A DNA stretch of 10,067 nucleotides from the UHGV virus genome UHGV-1547097; one strand, 5' to 3'. A program made the translations under genes and the position numbers. Under the pieces are notes generated by a model. That model ran no database searches and was not told where the DNA came from. It saw only the letters and a list, made by a program, of their open reading frames with translations. Of the stretch, positions 3,936 through 9,075 are shown piece after piece; within the stretch, counting starts at the first letter, position 1; every line of letters starts with the position of its first letter. Source of the stretch: a virus.

Positions 3936-4877
3936 TCACCCCCTAAATCCTGCCGGGATCTGGCTGTAGTCCACGTTGTCGTAACTGGCTTTGAAGTACG
4001 GGTCTTCACGTTTTTGTGTGTGCGTGCTGACGGACGGCGATAAGCGCAGGGAAAGCTCATCCCATTTTTCCCGCAACTTCGACGGGCTGAGCACGTTACG
4101 GCACCAGAACGGATCGCGGCTGACGCGGCTGTACATCTCGCAGATTTGTTTGTGAGTACGACCATCCTGCACACACATCAGGCGAATTTCGTTTGCCCAG
4201 GCTGTCCAGTTAGGTTCTTTGGGACGAACCACCTCGCCGTCACATTCGGCGGCCTGCTCGTACAGGGCGATGATTTTTTTCCAAAGCCACTGTGCGCAGG
4301 TCAAATCATCCTGCGTCCCCCACTGGCACTTTTTAGGGCTGAATACAACCGCATCAGGATGGCGAGTTAAAAAATCCTGTTCATCCGTCTGCGTGTCCGG
4401 TTGCGAAGCGTCCGGACGAGAAGGTTTTTTATCTGACGGATCATGTTTTGATTTTACTGACGGATCCCCGCCAGATTCTGACGGGTGAAAACCCGCTTTT
4501 TTGCCAGATTTCGACGCATCAAATTTTGACGGGTCAGATTTTGATGCATCAGATTTTGACGGGTCAGAATCTGACAGTTGAGAAAATGCCGCTGCCTGAA
4601 GCTTCGCAACGTTAAGCTGATAAACATTCGACGCATTGCGGTTACCCTGGCGACGCGCCTTACGCGTTAACCAGCCTTCTGCTTCCAGCCGTGCGATAGC
4701 CGTTCTGACGGTACTCATCCCCGCGCCAATCTGGCGGGCAATGGTTTCAATCGATGGCCAGCACACACCTTCGTCATTACTGAAATCAGCCAGGCGGGCC
4801 ATAATTGCCACGCTGGATAATTTCATGCCTGACGCTGCGCAACCATCCCATACATAGCCGGTTAATTTAGTGCTCAT
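3936..4877 (-). CDS. Phage replication initiation protein (O-like): N-terminal winged-helix HTH, acidic Ser/Asp repeat linker, C-terminal domain
   Basis: 313 aa, ATG at 4877 with GAGG 6 nt upstream. N-terminal segment SSVAIMARLADFSNDEGVCWPSIETIARQIGAGMSTVRTAIARLEAEGWL is typical of replication-initiator HTH domains. The central linker SDSDPSKSDASKSDPSKFDASKS is encoded by the iteron array. Confidence 0.8.
   Translation of the reverse strand: MSTKLTGYVWDGCAASGMKLSSVAIMARLADFSNDEGVCWPSIETIARQIGAGMSTVRTAIARLEAEGWLTRKARRQGNRNASNVYQLNVAKLQAAAFSQLSDSDPSKSDASKSDPSKFDASKSGKKAGFHPSESGGDPSVKSKHDPSDKKPSRPDASQPDTQTDEQDFLTRHPDAVVFSPKKCQWGTQDDLTCAQWLWKKIIALYEQAAECDGEVVRPKEPNWTAWANEIRLMCVQDGRTHKQICEMYSRVSRDPFWCRNVLSPSKLREKWDELSLRLSPSVSTHTQKREDPYFKASYDNVDYSQIPAGFRG
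4446..4577. repeat. Iteron array (candidate replication origin) inside the initiator gene
   Basis: Tandem ~15-bp units on the + strand: AGATTCTGACGGGTGA (4473-4488), AGATTTCGACGCATCA (4506-4521), AATTTTGACGGGTCAG (4522-4537), ATTTTGATGCATCAG (4538-4552), ATTTTGACGGGTCAG (4553-4567), plus degenerate copies at 4446-4466 and 4568-4577. Each unit has a palindromic core (TGACGGGTCA or TGATGCATCA). Confidence 0.75.
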
Positions 4878-5225: not shown

Positions 5226-5836
5226 GCGTTAGTTTCTCCACAACCAGAAGCAATCGACGCCACGACGCCCGGAGCTGCACACTCGCGGGCGTCATTACTT
5301 TCTGAAATGCAAAAGATTTTGTAGACAAGTGCTGCATGCTCCTGCAGCTTCGAAATTGAGAGATACAGCTCGTCGTTAATTGCTGTCTTCTCATGCGGTT
5401 CCACTACACCGTCTTCGATTGCTGAACGAATCTGTTTTGAATAACTGCCGATCTGTTCAATGACTTCCAGCAGACGCTGGTTAATATCGGCGTTGTCCAC
5501 ATCCTCGACGTCAGGAAGAGACACAAAGACGCCATTTGCAGACTGCGCCACAGCGTCAGCAATGAAGTGAGTTCCACCAGCACGTTGCAAAATCATTGCC
5601 CATCCCAGCGGGAAAATCTGATCGCCATCGGCACGAAGGCGGTTAAATAATGCGTTCTCTGTTACATCCAGCCAGTCAGCTGCTTCAGCGTAACCACCCG
5701 GCAACTTTGCGATAGTTTTTCTGACAGCTTTCACGTACCACTCAGGCTGTTTTTCTACTTTCCAGTGATGCTTACCCACGGTTAGCCTCATCGTTCTGTG
5801 GTTTCTGTTAATCGATTTATCCATTAGATTTTTCAT
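5222..5836 (-). CDS. Early regulatory protein in the cII position (possibly CII/YdaT-like); start uncertain
   Basis: Open frame from 5893 (GTG) to 5222. Candidate ATG starts at 5836, 5824 and 5791, none with a strong Shine-Dalgarno. First gene after cro in the early-right operon. Functional assignment is by position only. Confidence 0.45.
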
Positions 5837-6017
5837 AAAGCTCAGGTTTAAATGGCAACCGTCCGCAAGTTCTATATGCAGCTTCTGCTGCACGTCCTTT
5901 TGGAATTAACTGGCCCGGACGGTTTCGCCACTGATAAACGGCTTCAGTTGTTATGCCGAAAAAAGCAGCAACTTTCTCAATACTGCCGAAGTAGCTTTCG
6001 ATATCGTCAGTTGTCAT
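5817..6017 (-). CDS. cro: Cro-like HTH repressor
   Basis: 66 aa, ATG at 6017 with GGAGA 4 nt upstream. Transcribed divergently from the cI-like gene. HTH-like segment AAFFGITTEAVYQWRNR. Confidence 0.8.
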   Translation of the reverse strand: MTTDDIESYFGSIEKVAAFFGITTEAVYQWRNRPGQLIPKGRAAEAAYRTCGRLPFKPELYEKSNG

Positions 6018-6029
6018 ACGCTCTCCAAA

Positions 6030-6092
6030 CTAAGTTTTGTTAGATGCTAATTACAAATCTATCTTTGGTCAATAAAAACTAAGATTACTTAG
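6030..6092. promoter_or_regulatory. Right operator/promoter switch region: two 14-bp inverted-repeat operator candidates flanking a PR-like promoter
   Basis: Site A CTAAGTTTTGTTAG (6030-6043) and site B CTAAGATTACTTAG (6079-6092). On the - strand, -35 TTGACC (complement of 6067-6072), 17-nt spacer, -10 TAGCAT (complement of 6044-6049), directed toward cro. A PRM-like promoter for cI is presumably here too but not confidently placed. Confidence 0.55.
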
Positions 6093-6114: not shown

Positions 6115-6741
6115 ATGGAAACGGTTGGTCAGCGTATAAAAGCTCTGAGAAGAGTTACCAGAACGTCCCAGAAAGAATTGGGTAAATTTTGTGGAGTAAG
6201 CGACGTTGCTGTGGGGTACTGGGAGAAAGACATCAATACCCCTGGTGGGGAGGCACTTTCGAAATTAGCGAAGTTCTTCAATACGTCAATAGATTACATT
6301 CTTTATGGTGCTGAGTTTGAAGGCAAACTCGTCACAAACATGCGCAGAGTTCCTGTAATATCGTGGGTTCAGGCTGGGCAGTTTACTGAGTGCAGGGCAG
6401 CAGAAGTGTTTAGTGAAGTGGACAAGTGGGTAGATACATCATTAAAGGTTGGTGATAACTCATTTGCATTAGAGGTTAAAGGTGACTCCATGACTAACCC
6501 TAATGGCCTCCCAACAATACCAGAAGGCGCAACAGTGATTGTAGATCCAGATGCAGAACCTCGTCATGGAAAAATAGTCATCGCTCGACTTGATGGAACA
6601 AACGAAGCTACAGTAAAAAAATTAGTCATCGATGGCCCTCAAAAGTTTTTAGTGCCATTAAATCCTCGGTATCCCAACATCCCTATCAATGGTAATTGCC
6701 TTATCATTGGTGTAGTCAAAGGAGTTCAATACGAACTCTAA
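6115..6741 (+). CDS. cI: CI-like prophage repressor (XRE-type HTH plus S24 LexA-like autopeptidase domain)
   Basis: 208 aa. N-terminal HTH (QKELGKFCGVSDVAVGYWEK). Candidate Ala-Gly cleavage site in WVQAGQF. S24 catalytic Ser motif KGDSM and a downstream Lys (TVKKLV). Divergent from cro. Confidence 0.9.
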   Translation: METVGQRIKALRRVTRTSQKELGKFCGVSDVAVGYWEKDINTPGGEALSKLAKFFNTSIDYILYGAEFEGKLVTNMRRVPVISWVQAGQFTECRAAEVFSEVDKWVDTSLKVGDNSFALEVKGDSMTNPNGLPTIPEGATVIVDPDAEPRHGKIVIARLDGTNEATVKKLVIDGPQKFLVPLNPRYPNIPINGNCLIIGVVKGVQYEL

Positions 6742-6794
6742 GACCTCTCTTCTCTAACTAAGGCACCGAACTAAGAAAAGTTTGGTGTTTTCTC

Positions 6795-6823
6795 TTGCCA
6801 TAATAACTAAGTTAAGTTAGATT
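6795..6823 (+). promoter_or_regulatory. Candidate PL-like promoter overlapped by an operator palindrome (OL-like)
   Basis: -35 TTGCCA (6795-6800), 17-nt spacer, -10 TAGATT (6818-6823). Operator-type site C CTAAGTTAAGTTAG (6807-6820) overlaps spacer and -10. Further CTAAG half-sites at 6758-6762 and 6771-6775. Confidence 0.45.
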
Positions 6824-6947
6824 TTATATCAAAGATAACGAACAGGCAGGACGCCCACGAAGTAGCCGCCTGGGGCATATGAAGTCCAGGATGATTCGTT
6901 GAGTCATGTTGTGCCACTAGGCACTCATGTTAAAGCAGGTGTATGAA

Positions 6948-7223
6948 ATGAAAGTCCAGATTTTAAACAATAACTCTGAAGTCGTTTGGTCATACGACAT
7001 AGCCGCCCCTGTAGATCAGAGCGGCGATAGCTGGACCAATGGGAAACATCAGATTATGGCTGGAGTTGTGTTCTCTTTACGCCGTGCTTTGGAACAGGCT
7101 GAAGTATTTCCATCAGACCCTGAATGGAAATGGCCTTTTTCTATTTGTCCAAATTCGGAGAGCACATTTCAGAAAATTGGTCAGAAAGTCGCACTCGAAG
7201 AGCATCAGCCAACTGTTTCCTGA
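6948..7223 (+). CDS. Hypothetical small protein (91 aa), first ORF downstream of cI
   Basis: ATG at 6948 preceded by AGGTG with a 6-nt spacer (track starts at ATG 6927, in frame). Last 83 nt overlap the convergent ORF 7141-7386. No family recognised and no Arg-rich N-like motif. Confidence 0.4.
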   Translation: MKVQILNNNSEVVWSYDIAAPVDQSGDSWTNGKHQIMAGVVFSLRRALEQAEVFPSDPEWKWPFSICPNSESTFQKIGQKVALEEHQPTVS

Positions 7224-7386
7224 TTTTTTCAGGTAACTCGTCGGCATCGCAGAAACAACAACGCTCGATCATGTTGAAAGCCGATTCGTAGAACTGTTTC
7301 TGCTGAGTGTCGCTGAGACAGGAAAAGAGCGACGTTACGATGATTTTATTAATTGCATTATCAAGTTCTTTTTCATCAAAAGTCAT
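7141..7386 (-). CDS. Hypothetical small protein (81 aa), convergent to the preceding ORF
   Basis: ATG at 7386 with AAGGA 7 nt upstream. Protein-like composition (MTFDEKELDNAINKIIVTSLF...ERCCFCDADELPEK). No family recognised. Confidence 0.45.
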   Translation of the reverse strand: MTFDEKELDNAINKIIVTSLFSCLSDTQQKQFYESAFNMIERCCFCDADELPEKIRKQLADALRVRLSDQFSEMCSPNLDK

Positions 7387-7640
7387 TTGATTTTCCTTTT
7401 ATGTATACGGGCTTAAAAGGATACCACCGAGCCTGAAGTGGTGAAAAGACAGGCACATAACAGCTAAGTATTTTCAACCAGAGAGAATCCTTAGCGTTGT
7501 GGTGAATGCGGCTCAGCGCACGCGGGTTAAGGTTGAGGCTGACAGTCGACCTTCTGTGGATACCCACCCGCCTGGTGTGCAACCTTCGCCAGGCACCGGG
7601 AGGCACCCGGCACCACAACTTTATGCTGTGTGTAGTCCTG

Positions 7641-7686
7641 GCGGTACCAGTTTGTACCCTTGCTTCCGGCTGGTACCGCTCTTTTT
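7641..7686 (+). terminator. Intrinsic-terminator-like hairpin followed by a T-run
   Basis: GCGGTACCAG (7641-7650) pairs with CTGGTACCGC (7670-7679) over a 19-nt loop, followed by TCTTTTT (7680-7686). The loop is long for a classical terminator. Confidence 0.45.
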
Positions 7687-7823
7687 ACAAAACGGAGAAG
7701 AGCATCACCGGACGACGGGCTCATAACCCAATCCATCCGGGCGGCTGCCACCGCAGGTGTTCTTCTCTGTTTTGTGGAGAAACTAATCGGCCTTGCAGGG
7801 TCGATATGATGAGGAGTAGCAAA

Positions 7824-8186
7824 ATGGCTAGCGAACGCAGTACTGATGTGCAGGCATTTATCGGGGAGCTGGACGGCGGCGTATTTGAAACCAAAATCGG
7901 CGCAGTTCTCAGTGAAGTCGCTTCCGGTGTGATGAACACGAAAACCAAAGGGAAGGTCTCACTCAATCTGGAAATCGAACCGTTTGATGAGAACCGTGTG
8001 AAAATCAAACACAAACTCTCATATGTTCGCCCGACTAACCGCGGGAAAATTTCCGAAGAAGACACCACCGAAACGCCGATGTATGTCAATCGCGGTGGTC
8101 GCCTGACTATTCTGCAGGAAGACCAGGGACAATTACTGACTCTTGCCGGTGAACCTGACGGAAAACTCCGCGCAGCAGGTCGTTAA
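7824..8186 (+). CDS. yfdP: YfdP-like phage protein (120 aa), unknown function
   Basis: ATG at 7824 with AGGAG 7 nt upstream. The track's upstream extension to 7506 lacks an RBS and lies in the structured noncoding region. Matches my recollection of E. coli K-12 CPS-53 YfdP (MASERSTDVQAFIGELDGG...). Confidence 0.7.
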   Translation: MASERSTDVQAFIGELDGGVFETKIGAVLSEVASGVMNTKTKGKVSLNLEIEPFDENRVKIKHKLSYVRPTNRGKISEEDTTETPMYVNRGGRLTILQEDQGQLLTLAGEPDGKLRAAGR

Positions 8187-8251
8187 TATCGTTCTTAATA
8201 AACTGATTATTTATCTCATCACTGAATATCTTTATATAGTGAGGACTTATT

Positions 8252-9075
8252 ATGTCTCAGAACTTAGACGCAACCGCAATTAATCAAATCCATGCCCTTA
8301 TTTCTGCTCAGGGTGTTAATGAAATTATCAGTAAGATTGGTGCCGATGCTGTGGCATTGCCTGAGAATTACCGCATTCATGATCTGGAAAAATTTAATTT
8401 AAATCGTTTCCGTTTCCGTGGTGCGCTTTCCACTGCCAGCATCGATGACTTTACCCGTTATTCTAAAGATCTTGCAGATGAAGGCACCCGCTGCTTTATC
8501 GATGCCGATAATATGCGTGCCGTCAGTGTGCTTAACCTGGGTACTATTGATGAGCCAGGTCACGCAGATAACACTGCCACTCTCAAACTGAAAAAGACAG
8601 CACCGTTCTCTGCTCTGTTGTCTGTTAACGGCGAGCGTAACTCCCAGAAATCACTGGCAGAATGGATTGAAGACTGGGCCGACTACCTTGTGGGCTTTGA
8701 TGCTAATGGTGATGCCATTCAGGCAACAAAAGCGGCTGCGGCAGTCCGTAAAATCACGATTGAAGCAAACCAGACCGCTGATTTTGAAGACAATGACTTC
8801 AGCGGCAAACGCTCCCTGATGGAGTCTGTCGAAGCGAAGACCAAAGATATTATGCCTGTGGCATTTGAATTTAAATGCGTTCCGTTTGAAGGTCTGAAAG
8901 AACGTCCGTTTAAATTACGCCTCAGCATTATCACTGGCGATCGTCCGTACTGGTTCTGCGCATTATTCAGCTGGAAGCGGTGCAGGAAGATATGGCTAAC
9001 GAATTTCGTGATCTGCTTGTTGAGAAATTCAAGGACAGCAAAGTAGAAACCTTTATTGGTACTTTCACCGCCTGA
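8252..9075 (+). pseudogene. yfdQ: YfdQ-like phage protein with an apparent single-base deletion (-1 frameshift near 8945-8950)
   Basis: ATG at 8252 with GAGGA 6 nt upstream. The starting frame reads protein-like sequence to about 8946, then Trp/Cys-rich text to TAG 9046. The -1 frame is open from 8914 and reads ...[42 protein letters not shown] to TGA at 9073-9075. Total span is 824 nt, one short of a multiple of three. Confidence 0.65.

Follow-up and report, generated by a model that had tools for sequence, protein, structure and literature searches.

A probable mosaic STnc100/sRNA-17-type small RNA and a conserved leader RNA upstream of yfdP in an SfV-like prophage

Directly upstream of yfdP in an SfV-like lambdoid prophage, positions 7387–7823 of the 10,067-nucleotide (nt) stretch of DNA analysed here (virus genome UHGV-1547097; the whole stretch is called the window below) form a composite of three RNA elements: a pseudoknotted core (7496–7619), a linker with an intrinsic terminator that completes a small RNA (sRNA) unit with the core (7495–7686), and a further structured RNA that we call module B (7682–7780). 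The stretch is part of the early-left (pL) operon of the prophage and is probably a noncoding RNA locus, in which an sRNA of about 190 nt of the STnc100/sRNA-17 type, carrying its own terminator, is followed by a leader module made when polymerase reads through. The prophage sRNA families to which it relates are known, and on present evidence the locus is not a new kind of system; what appears new is the mosaic variant of the sRNA and a leader motif without an Rfam match.

An STnc100-type core

The preliminary description of this stretch, made from the letters alone, had called it GC-rich, noncoding and structured, and further analysis agrees. The GC content is 0.53–0.58 over 7400–7800, compared with 0.39–0.47 over 6900–7500 and 0.36–0.50 over 7800–8700. 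The + strand RNA of 7387–7823 folds at −179.8 kcal/mol (z = −6.2) with none of 100 shuffles as good, so that the folding check proposed at the outset returned structure beyond shuffled controls, while the − strand reaches z = −2.6 only. The structured part starts at about 7495, and 7387–7494 is not conserved in the relatives ST64B or phiES15. ARAGORN found no tRNA or tmRNA in the window.

A covariance-model scan, also proposed at the outset, matched STnc100 (RF02076) at 7466–7688, from position 1 to 206 of the 206 in the model, with 46.5 bits against a cut-off of 47 and E = 6.7e-9 in the regional scan. Over the whole window the same match has E = 1.1e-7 and is the sole credible Rfam hit. The copy in phage SfV, different by a few bases, scores 39.5 bits. 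Rfam E-value scans, in which divergent copies could be missed, gave a single STnc100-like copy in the window and a single one in the complete SfV genome.

The core itself spans 124 nt and comprises five helices and a pseudoknot. It is closed by helix P1, in which 7496–7504 (GUUGUGGUG) pairs with 7611–7619 (CACCACAAC) in the minimum-free-energy (MFE) fold and by covariation. Among 34 relatives the three outer variable pairs of P1 covary (GC 18/AU 13; CG 12/UA 8/UG 6), and 89% of cells are paired as opposed to 33–45% in slid controls. The 5′ strand of P1 is followed by a conserved AAU junction (7505–7507), and the UGGUGAAU junction of STnc100 is present; the T of GTGAAT is at least 90% conserved, not invariant. 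Next in the MFE fold comes the P2 hairpin, GCGGC..GC.CGC (7508–7523), a variant shared with ST64B, phiES15, the Qin prophage of Escherichia coli K-12 and two further loci (L017 and L085), and a small hairpin is predicted by folding at 7555–7566.

The pseudoknot joins AAGGUUG (7529–7535) to CAACCUU (7580–7586) in the loop of P4. It is not part of the Rfam STnc100 model and was found in the present analysis through complementarity across relatives: each of the 34 relatives has an upstream strand complementary to the P4 loop of the same RNA, and these strands come in 27 distinct sequences. The median pairing score is 6.0 with the own loop and 4.0 with the loops of other members, and 68% of own pairings score 6 or higher against 12.5% of cross pairings. 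In phiES15 the pair reads AAGGCUG/CAGCCUU, a double compensatory change.

The 3′ part of the core holds two hairpins. The P4 stem (7570–7577 with 7587–7594) encloses a loop (7578–7586) that contains the 3′ strand of the pseudoknot, and shows a compensatory change from C-G to U-A in ST64B and phiES15. P5, CCGGG-AGGCA-CCCGG (7596–7610), lies within a 22-nt sequence, CACCGGGAGGCACCCGGCACCA, that is exact at 7594–7615 and exact in at least 120 viral contigs forming 35 clusters at 90% identity. Its stem covaries while the AGGCA loop is kept, as CCUGG/CCAGG in K-12 Qin and GGUGG/CCACC in another locus (L216). That the loop stays invariant while its stem covaries, and that the pseudoknot is kept, may point to a specific partner, a protein or the transcription complex, beyond base pairing alone. 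P4 and P5 are the back-to-back stem-loops of the preliminary description, GCCTGG/CCAGGC at 7570–7594 and CCGGG/CCCGG at 7596–7610; they lie exactly where it had placed them, separated by one base (A7595), and the STnc100 match covers both.

STnc100 and the related PasD1 and PasD2 are prophage sRNAs of unknown function (bioRxiv 10.64898/2026.05.13.724894). PasD was found by Hfq-based RIL-seq (sequencing of ligated pairs of interacting RNAs), confirmed by northern blot and related to STnc100 by the Storz laboratory; these relatives of the window RNA are abundant Hfq-associated RNAs with many RIL-seq partners (bioRxiv 10.64898/2026.05.13.724894). The window shares with STnc100/PasD the 22-nt core sequence, P1 with its UGGUGAAU junction, P4, P5, the pseudoknot and a terminal Rho-independent terminator, and by analogy with PasD its RNA may likewise associate with Hfq. 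It differs in position, as the window copy stands in an early-left operon 3′ of cI with no strong promoter in front, whereas the three canonical copies whose annotation we inspected occupy other sites: in Klebsiella the interval from Q to the lysis genes, immediately after a strong promoter, in Fels-1 the same interval, and in VT2-Sakai a place after stx2B. Promoters of the TTGAC type also lie just upstream in several further STnc100-like clusters.

The sRNA unit and its terminator

Core, linker and terminator make up an sRNA unit at 7495–7686 on the + strand, about 191 nt long, as delimited by the STnc100 match and by the ends of sRNA-17 (below). Folded alone, it forms the closed core, a largely unpaired linker and the terminator, at −79.4 kcal/mol. 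The U-rich linker, UUUAUGCUGUGUGUAGUCCU, covers 20 nt (7620–7639) and is largely unpaired save for one 3-bp hairpin; the motif TGCTGTGTGTAGTC recurs ahead of the terminator in many relatives. On these features the linker is a candidate seed and Hfq-proximal region, which might act by base pairing.

The terminator pairs 7640–7652 with 7668–7680 and continues through a single C into UUUUU at 7682–7686. The preliminary description had pointed to a terminator-like hairpin with a T-run at 7641–7686, and this is borne out with a stem of 13 bp, −21.2 kcal/mol and z = −3.9. Terminators of different sequence stand at the same place after the core in ST64B, sal3 and phiES15.

A promoter scan found no + strand sigma-70 promoter near P1. 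Of two candidates picked by eye, GAGAAT (7483–7488) has no −35 element, reads GAGAAC in ST64B and is not conserved, and AAGACA-17-TATTTT (7447–7475) is weak and not conserved. Sequences resembling boxA, GCUCAUAAC in module B and CGCUCUUUUUACAA at the terminator, and an ops-like GGCGGTA at the base of the terminator were likewise noted by eye; they are partial or not conserved, and we make no claim for them.

Resemblance to sRNA-17 and DicF

The slot between the repressor region and yfdP is occupied in mEp460 by the segment of sRNA-17, just upstream of yfdP as in the window. sRNA-17 of E. coli K1 RS218 is a 193-nt RNA of an mEp460-like prophage, defined by 5′/3′ rapid amplification of cDNA ends (RACE) and northern blot (PMC7719688). 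Its full-length primers (Table S2) give a 5′ end of CGTTGTGGTGAATGCG... and, from the reverse complement of the reverse primer, a 3′ end of ...GGTACCGCTCTTTT (PMC7719688). These RACE-derived primers match the window at 7495–7510 and, with one mismatch at 7658, at 7652–7685; the window is identical to sRNA-17 over its first 16 bases and the two upstream of them, over the P1 3′ strand CACCACAAC and over the terminator save for one base, and the 3′ RACE end lies in a U-run identical to that of the window. The two therefore agree in slot, in ends, in P1 3′ strand, in having module B downstream and in length (193 against about 191 nt), and we borrow the RNA ends and the expression of sRNA-17 for the window RNA by analogy. 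The preliminary description had offered, as alternatives, that the hairpin is a tL-type terminator or that it ends a prophage sRNA; with matching sRNA-17 ends, both hold and are the same object.

Between those ends the two RNAs part. The interior of about 100 nt (~7511–7610) cannot be aligned with mEp460, sRNA-17 has a different P2 and a CCGG-AGAUCAGCA-CCGG hairpin, and its ArcA-binding upstream fragment has no counterpart in the window. Because its ends are those of sRNA-17 and its core is that of STnc100, the window RNA is a mosaic, an STnc100 core set in an sRNA-17 frame, and this places sRNA-17 and STnc100 in one modular group. In mEp460 (L005, 2854–2990) the P2 loop GGCUGA is complementary, by eye, to the loop AGAUCAGCA of the hairpin before P1, which suggests that RNAs of the sRNA-17 type may have a loop–loop contact where STnc100-type copies have the pseudoknot.

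Published data on sRNA-17 also speak to its surroundings. When its core was deleted, yfdP went from 0.49 to 47 reads and yfdR rose as well; sRNA-17 itself is low in the lysogen, at 4 RNA-seq reads (Table S6) (PMC7719688). This is consistent with a barrier or repressor and speaks against antitermination. The sRNA-17 amplicon used for quantitative reverse-transcription PCR begins some 250 nt ahead of the mapped 5′ end (primers from PMC7719688, positions on mEp460); longer precursors therefore appear to exist, and the 5′ end may arise by processing.

A parallel is found in E. coli K-12 MG1655, where the Qin prophage has an unannotated STnc100-like element (L237, 2033–2242; 34.4 bits, E = 2.4e-5) between dicF and dicB. 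It carries the variant P2, a pseudoknot CAGUUAA/UUAACUG and the P5 hairpin CCUGG-AGGCA-CCAGG, sits right behind the terminator of DicF and reaches as far as the dicB ribosome-binding site (RBS), with no terminator of its own. DicF resembles the window RNA in being an sRNA of an early-left-type operon of a lambdoid prophage, 3′ of the repressor gene, with a single-stranded seed followed by a terminator that starts GGCGGUA(U/C)CAGUUU, and with an STnc100-like element in the same operon, before dicB; its terminator, GGCGGUAUCAG, resembles that of the window, GGCGGUACCAG. The seed sequences differ, however, and window 7627–7681 scores only 15.7 bits with the DicF model (RF00039; cut-off 48), whereas K-12 dicF scores 76.7 bits. 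The order is also reversed: in Qin, DicF with its terminator comes first and a core without terminator second, whereas in the window the core comes first and carries the terminator.

Terminators that precede module B at many loci, among them the DicF terminator, nearly all start with GGCGG(T/C), often GGCGGTA (7640–7646 in the window; 1997–2003 in L237), and otherwise differ in sequence. This shared start may reflect common ancestry. GGCGGTA also agrees with the RfaH ops element (GGCGGTAG) over its first 7 bases, and the eighth base differs.

Module B

Downstream of the terminator lies a second conserved RNA, at 7682–7780 on the + strand, which the preliminary description had not seen. A helix of about 25 bp (7682–7706 with 7756–7780), whose 5′ arm starts in the terminator U-run, closes a three-way junction. 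One branch (7708–7712 with 7736–7740) surrounds an invariant GGG-CUCAUAA-CCC hairpin (7717–7729), and the other is a variable hairpin (7741–7744 with 7751–7754) whose length differs by 22–25 nt among relatives. Module B folds at −50.5 kcal/mol (z = −6.4). Across 20 distinct relatives 93.9% of cells are paired, against 35–52% when slid, and nine pairs differ at both positions; the covariation score reaches 0.179 versus 0.095, with none of 500 shuffles as high. G-U pairs fit the + strand only.

The invariant core of module B occurs in at least 120 viral contigs (33 clusters) and, among species-representative genomes of the Enterobacterales, in prophages of 14 genera, with a fold that is nearly always the same: Escherichia, Shigella, Citrobacter, Enterobacter, Kosakonia, Leclercia, Klebsiella, Phytobacter, Buttiauxella, Pseudescherichia, Pseudocitrobacter, Mixta, Erwinia and Pantoea. 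It is also found in one assembly labelled Chryseobacterium, which is probably contaminated. Rfam gave nothing for module B at E ≤ 10 save a chance-level match of the minus strand to the Hairpin ribozyme (14.5 bits, cut-off 65, E = 5), and no description of it turned up in a literature search limited to yfdP and sRNAs.

The position of the module is nearly constant. At 91 of 93 distinct loci a T-run lies directly upstream, at 84 of them behind a strong hairpin, while the element further upstream varies: an STnc100 core at 25 loci, another P1-like element at 19 and other sequences at 49. The first gene downstream also varies and is most often YfdP-like; the N-termini encoded by other first genes look RdgC-like or YfdR-like. 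In Mixta tenebrionis (L244) module B follows a promoter-like TTGATT-17-TATAGT and not a terminator. In a Pantoea metagenome-assembled genome (L259) only the invariant inner hairpin is kept, within different helices, and this hairpin may be the functional heart of the module.

Because its 5′ arm includes the terminator U-run, the long helix can form only in RNA that reads through. This recalls the RNase III hairpin of the phage lambda N leader and the sib/tI retroregulator: module B puts a long, near-perfect helix into the leader of the first early-left gene and, like sib, exists as a full helix only in transcripts that read through a terminator. By this likeness module B may be processed by RNase III, though it has no sequence similarity to the N leader or sib, and its internal GGG-CUCAUAA-CCC hairpin has no lambda counterpart. 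Between module B and yfdP, a short hairpin with a UGCA loop (7787–7804; −11.4 kcal/mol) is no better than shuffles (z = −1.2); by eye, a hairpin with a GCAG-containing loop recurs before the yfdP RBS in relatives.

Coding status of the stretch

The stretch has been annotated as protein-coding more than once. RefSeq (PGAP, strain RM10466) places a 'frameshifted hypothetical protein' pseudogene over 7499–7809, and several phage records carry hypothetical proteins on 7387–7823. The preliminary description had found no convincing ORF (open reading frame), and comparative alignment, which it had allowed might expose a decayed coding sequence, upholds it. Pfam gave no match for the five overlapping ORFs. 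Three of them matched PHROG families of unknown function only (7660–7809 on the + strand, 7376–7618 and 7527–7751 on the − strand), which we take to be ORF calls on the same DNA in other phages; PHROG gave none for 7499–7726 or for the ORF from 7506 in the yfdP frame.

With relatives of 76–94% identity, substitutions showed no codon-position bias. Against ST64B (77% identity) the four longest frames have 14/15/18, 23/25/27, 13/19/13 and 17/19/17 substitutions by codon position, and a short minus-strand ORF has 8/5/2, again with no third-position excess. Indels of 1, 1, 20 and 25 nt separate the relatives, and homologs have stops in four of the five candidate frames. The remaining frame, 7660–7809, has no stops in comparison with ST64B or sal3, but its substitutions lack a third-position bias, and other relatives have indels of 1 and 25 nt in it.

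That the stretch is a decayed gene, as the RM10466 pseudogene call, the PHROG matches and the 226 open codons of ORF 7506–8186 in frame with yfdP might suggest, is thus scarcely credible: even substitutions, frameshifting indels, homolog stops and the lack of any Pfam match refute it. The variable hairpin of module B differs by 22–25 nt in length among relatives, and compensatory changes together with + strand G-U pairs explain the conservation instead. Ahead of its true start the yfdP frame has no stop for 106 codons, an artefact that the GC-rich RNA region produces, and the open frame 7506–8186 could mislead gene callers into an N-terminally extended YfdP.

Alternative explanations

The preliminary description had also proposed a cis-acting antitermination RNA of the HK022 type, prompted by the stem-loops that are P4 and P5 of the STnc100-type core. 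The nascent core would then carry polymerase through the terminator 20 nt further on and through later ones, replacing N. The core does resemble HK022 putL and putR in being a structured RNA that a lambdoid phage without N encodes in cis within an early operon (no N-like protein was seen, and orf33 has no Pfam match and is not arginine-rich), and in having two adjacent stem-loops one base apart with a terminator shortly downstream; its compact, conserved form at this place recalls the layout of putL. The AGGCA loop on its covarying stem and the pseudoknot suggest a specific macromolecular partner, and early-type copies have no obvious promoter of their own and would therefore be parts of a longer operon transcript. 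Yet a covariance model of putL and putR, which scores the HK022 sites at 96.5 and 88.5 bits, has no hit at E ≤ 10 in 7387–7823, and direct alignment to put shows chance similarity only. The core has 124 nt, five helices and a pseudoknot where put has about 70 nt and two stems; it lies about 670 nt from the putative pL start (~6830) and not at the transcript start; and it is present once in the window and in the SfV genome, with no copy in the rightward operon, where put has a site in each early operon. Canonical members of the family have a strong promoter in front and lysis genes downstream, and their phages also encode Q; an autonomous antiterminator at such a site would express lysis genes in lysogens. 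Relatives accumulate as discrete terminated RNAs. Deletion of the sRNA-17 core raised yfdP RNA where a loss would be expected, with the inserted cassette as a confounder. We consider antitermination by the core very unlikely.

A riboswitch-like attenuator, in which the core senses a ligand or factor and decides whether the terminator forms, would suit the order of a closed multi-helix domain with a pseudoknot, a terminator and genes. In the window the 3′ arm of P4 (CGCCAGG) is indeed complementary over 7 nt to the base of the terminator 5′ arm (CCUGGCG), but this anti-terminator pairing is not kept in ST64B or phiES15 and was rejected. Core–terminator distance and terminator sequence vary freely among relatives, the core before dicB in K-12 Qin has no terminator, and downstream genes are unrelated among phages, so that no common ligand logic is apparent; we give the attenuator hardly any credence. 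The plainer idea that the stretch is a terminator and spacer, whose RNA has no function of its own and which serves 3′-end stabilisation and insulation of the early-left genes, draws on the rise of yfdP and yfdR upon disturbance, which fits a barrier, on the lack of a predicted trans target and on the 4 lysogen reads of sRNA-17. Against it stand the 22-nt core, the covarying P1 and the pseudoknot, kept across at least 35 clusters and several genera, the retention of module B in 14 Enterobacterales genera, and the abundance, Hfq association and many RIL-seq partners of relatives, and we judge it unlikely.

Several points also weigh against our own reading of the locus as an STnc100/sRNA-17-type sRNA with a read-through leader. 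The STnc100 score is 0.5 bit below the curated cut-off, the P2 variant replaces the canonical CCCCC-loop-GGGG hairpin of STnc100, and at the positions of canonical P2 the Rfam alignment marks non-standard pairs. As no good sigma-70 promoter lies directly upstream of the unit, the sRNA is perhaps made only from pL and then processed; unlike canonical STnc100 copies, it may depend on a promoter that is repressed in the lysogen. No target was predicted for the linker, whose duplex energies with ftsZ, the downstream leader and the neighbouring antisense ORF do not beat those of shuffles, in a test without power because the known DicF–ftsZ pair was not singled out either. sRNA-17 is not recognised by the STnc100 model, in agreement with the remark of its authors that it has no Rfam homolog (PMC7719688), and because only the ends are shared, properties of sRNA-17 can be transferred to the window RNA no more than provisionally. 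A resistance cassette was inserted in the sRNA-17 deletion and confounds the yfdP increase; its flanking homology keeps most of the terminator. Finally, RNase III cleavage of module B is proposed by analogy with lambda.

The early-left operon

Window 7300–7900 shares 99% identity with Shigella phage SfV and up to 99.7% with prophages of E. coli; part of this region is present in 2865 of 5426 complete E. coli genomes and most of it in 505. The stretch is assigned to the early-left operon because of the gene order: cro (5817–6017, − strand), then on the + strand cI (6115–6741), orf33 (6927–7223), the stretch, yfdP (7824–8186), yfdQ (8252–9046) and an HD-hydrolase gene, which is followed by xis and int in the SfV record only. 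The yfdP frame translates without a stop into 120 aa, which match phrog_204 at 1e-49, and RefSeq has YfdP annotated here as well; the RBS of yfdP, GAGGAG (7811–7816), precedes the start codon at 7824–7826. In the K-12 prophage CPS-53 homology to the window begins only at the yfdP RBS, so K-12 data sets are uninformative for the locus.

Just 3′ of cI, the promoter scan gave a promoter-like site, TTGCCA-17-TAGATT (6795–6823, + strand), overlapped by operator-like AACTAAG..TTAG repeats (6755–6822). Three direct-repeat families (D1–D3) tie 6769–6830 to the cI–cro intergenic region (6028–6092), and the repeats at 6755–6830 and 6028–6092 resemble the OL and OR operator sets around pL. On its sequence the site is likely pL with its operators, from which transcripts would reach the sRNA; the terminator hairpin (7640–7686) lies about 860 nt 3′ of the start that this site implies.

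Some features lie outside the locus proper. An 81-aa ORF on the − strand (7141–7386) has a good RBS, AAGGAAAA, 5 nt before its ATG, matches phrog_3311 over its full length (1e-55) and is unannotated in SfV and the RefSeq strain. It is convergent with orf33, with an 83-nt overlap, and should it be genuine, transcription from pL passes across it in antisense. Just upstream of its start is a terminator-like hairpin on the − strand (7423–7442; ACCACTTCAGGCTCGGTGGT followed by ATCCTTTTAA), and the SfV record has a putative + strand terminator at the equivalent of 7374–7406. Elsewhere in the window, about 75 nt at 4502–4576, within the minus-strand ORF 3936–4877, score 29.9 and 27.8 bits on the two strands with a microRNA-precursor model and therefore form an extended, nearly perfect palindrome. 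Adjacent matches to isrK and C4 antisense RNA, both above the Rfam cut-offs, occur in the rightward early operon of SfV (L236, 27603–27791), ST64B and mEp460; sal3 shows the isrK match alone, since the position of C4 lies outside the sal3 locus compared. The pair resembles the antirepressor control region of the P1/P7 type.

Discussion

We propose that polymerase moving rightward would make the compact core, then the U-rich linker and then the strong intrinsic terminator. Termination at 7682–7686 would free an sRNA of about 190 nt, laid out like typical regulatory sRNAs of enterobacteria with a protective 5′ domain, an accessible linker and a U-tailed terminator, and the same terminator would be the first barrier that holds down yfdP, yfdQ, the HD-hydrolase gene and the early-left genes after them. 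Polymerases that pass the terminator would make module B, which would serve the downstream mRNA as a processing or stability element, or a translational one; a target of the RNase III type is the most plausible. Both the action of the sRNA in trans through its linker and the barrier role in the present phage are what we infer from this arrangement. A bolder version, in which module B is an undescribed and widespread cis RNA coupled to termination, the core binds a protein or the transcription complex and the whole cassette provides N-independent early-left control, strikes us as doubtful.

For annotation, the RefSeq pseudogene label over a noncoding RNA is worth correcting. Beyond this, the window RNA joins sRNAs that have been described separately, STnc100/PasD, sRNA-17 and the neighbourhood of DicF, and points with them to a modular RNA cassette that heads early-left operons, whereas STnc100 and PasD have been treated in the literature as late-region sRNAs linked to Shiga toxin (Stx) phages. 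The pseudoknot and the AGGCA loop give the STnc100 family testable features. The constant position of module B behind a terminator suggests a function that depends on read-through and may bear on delayed-early gene expression in lambdoid phages without N; if this is true, module B would link the decision to terminate with the processing, stability or translation of early genes.

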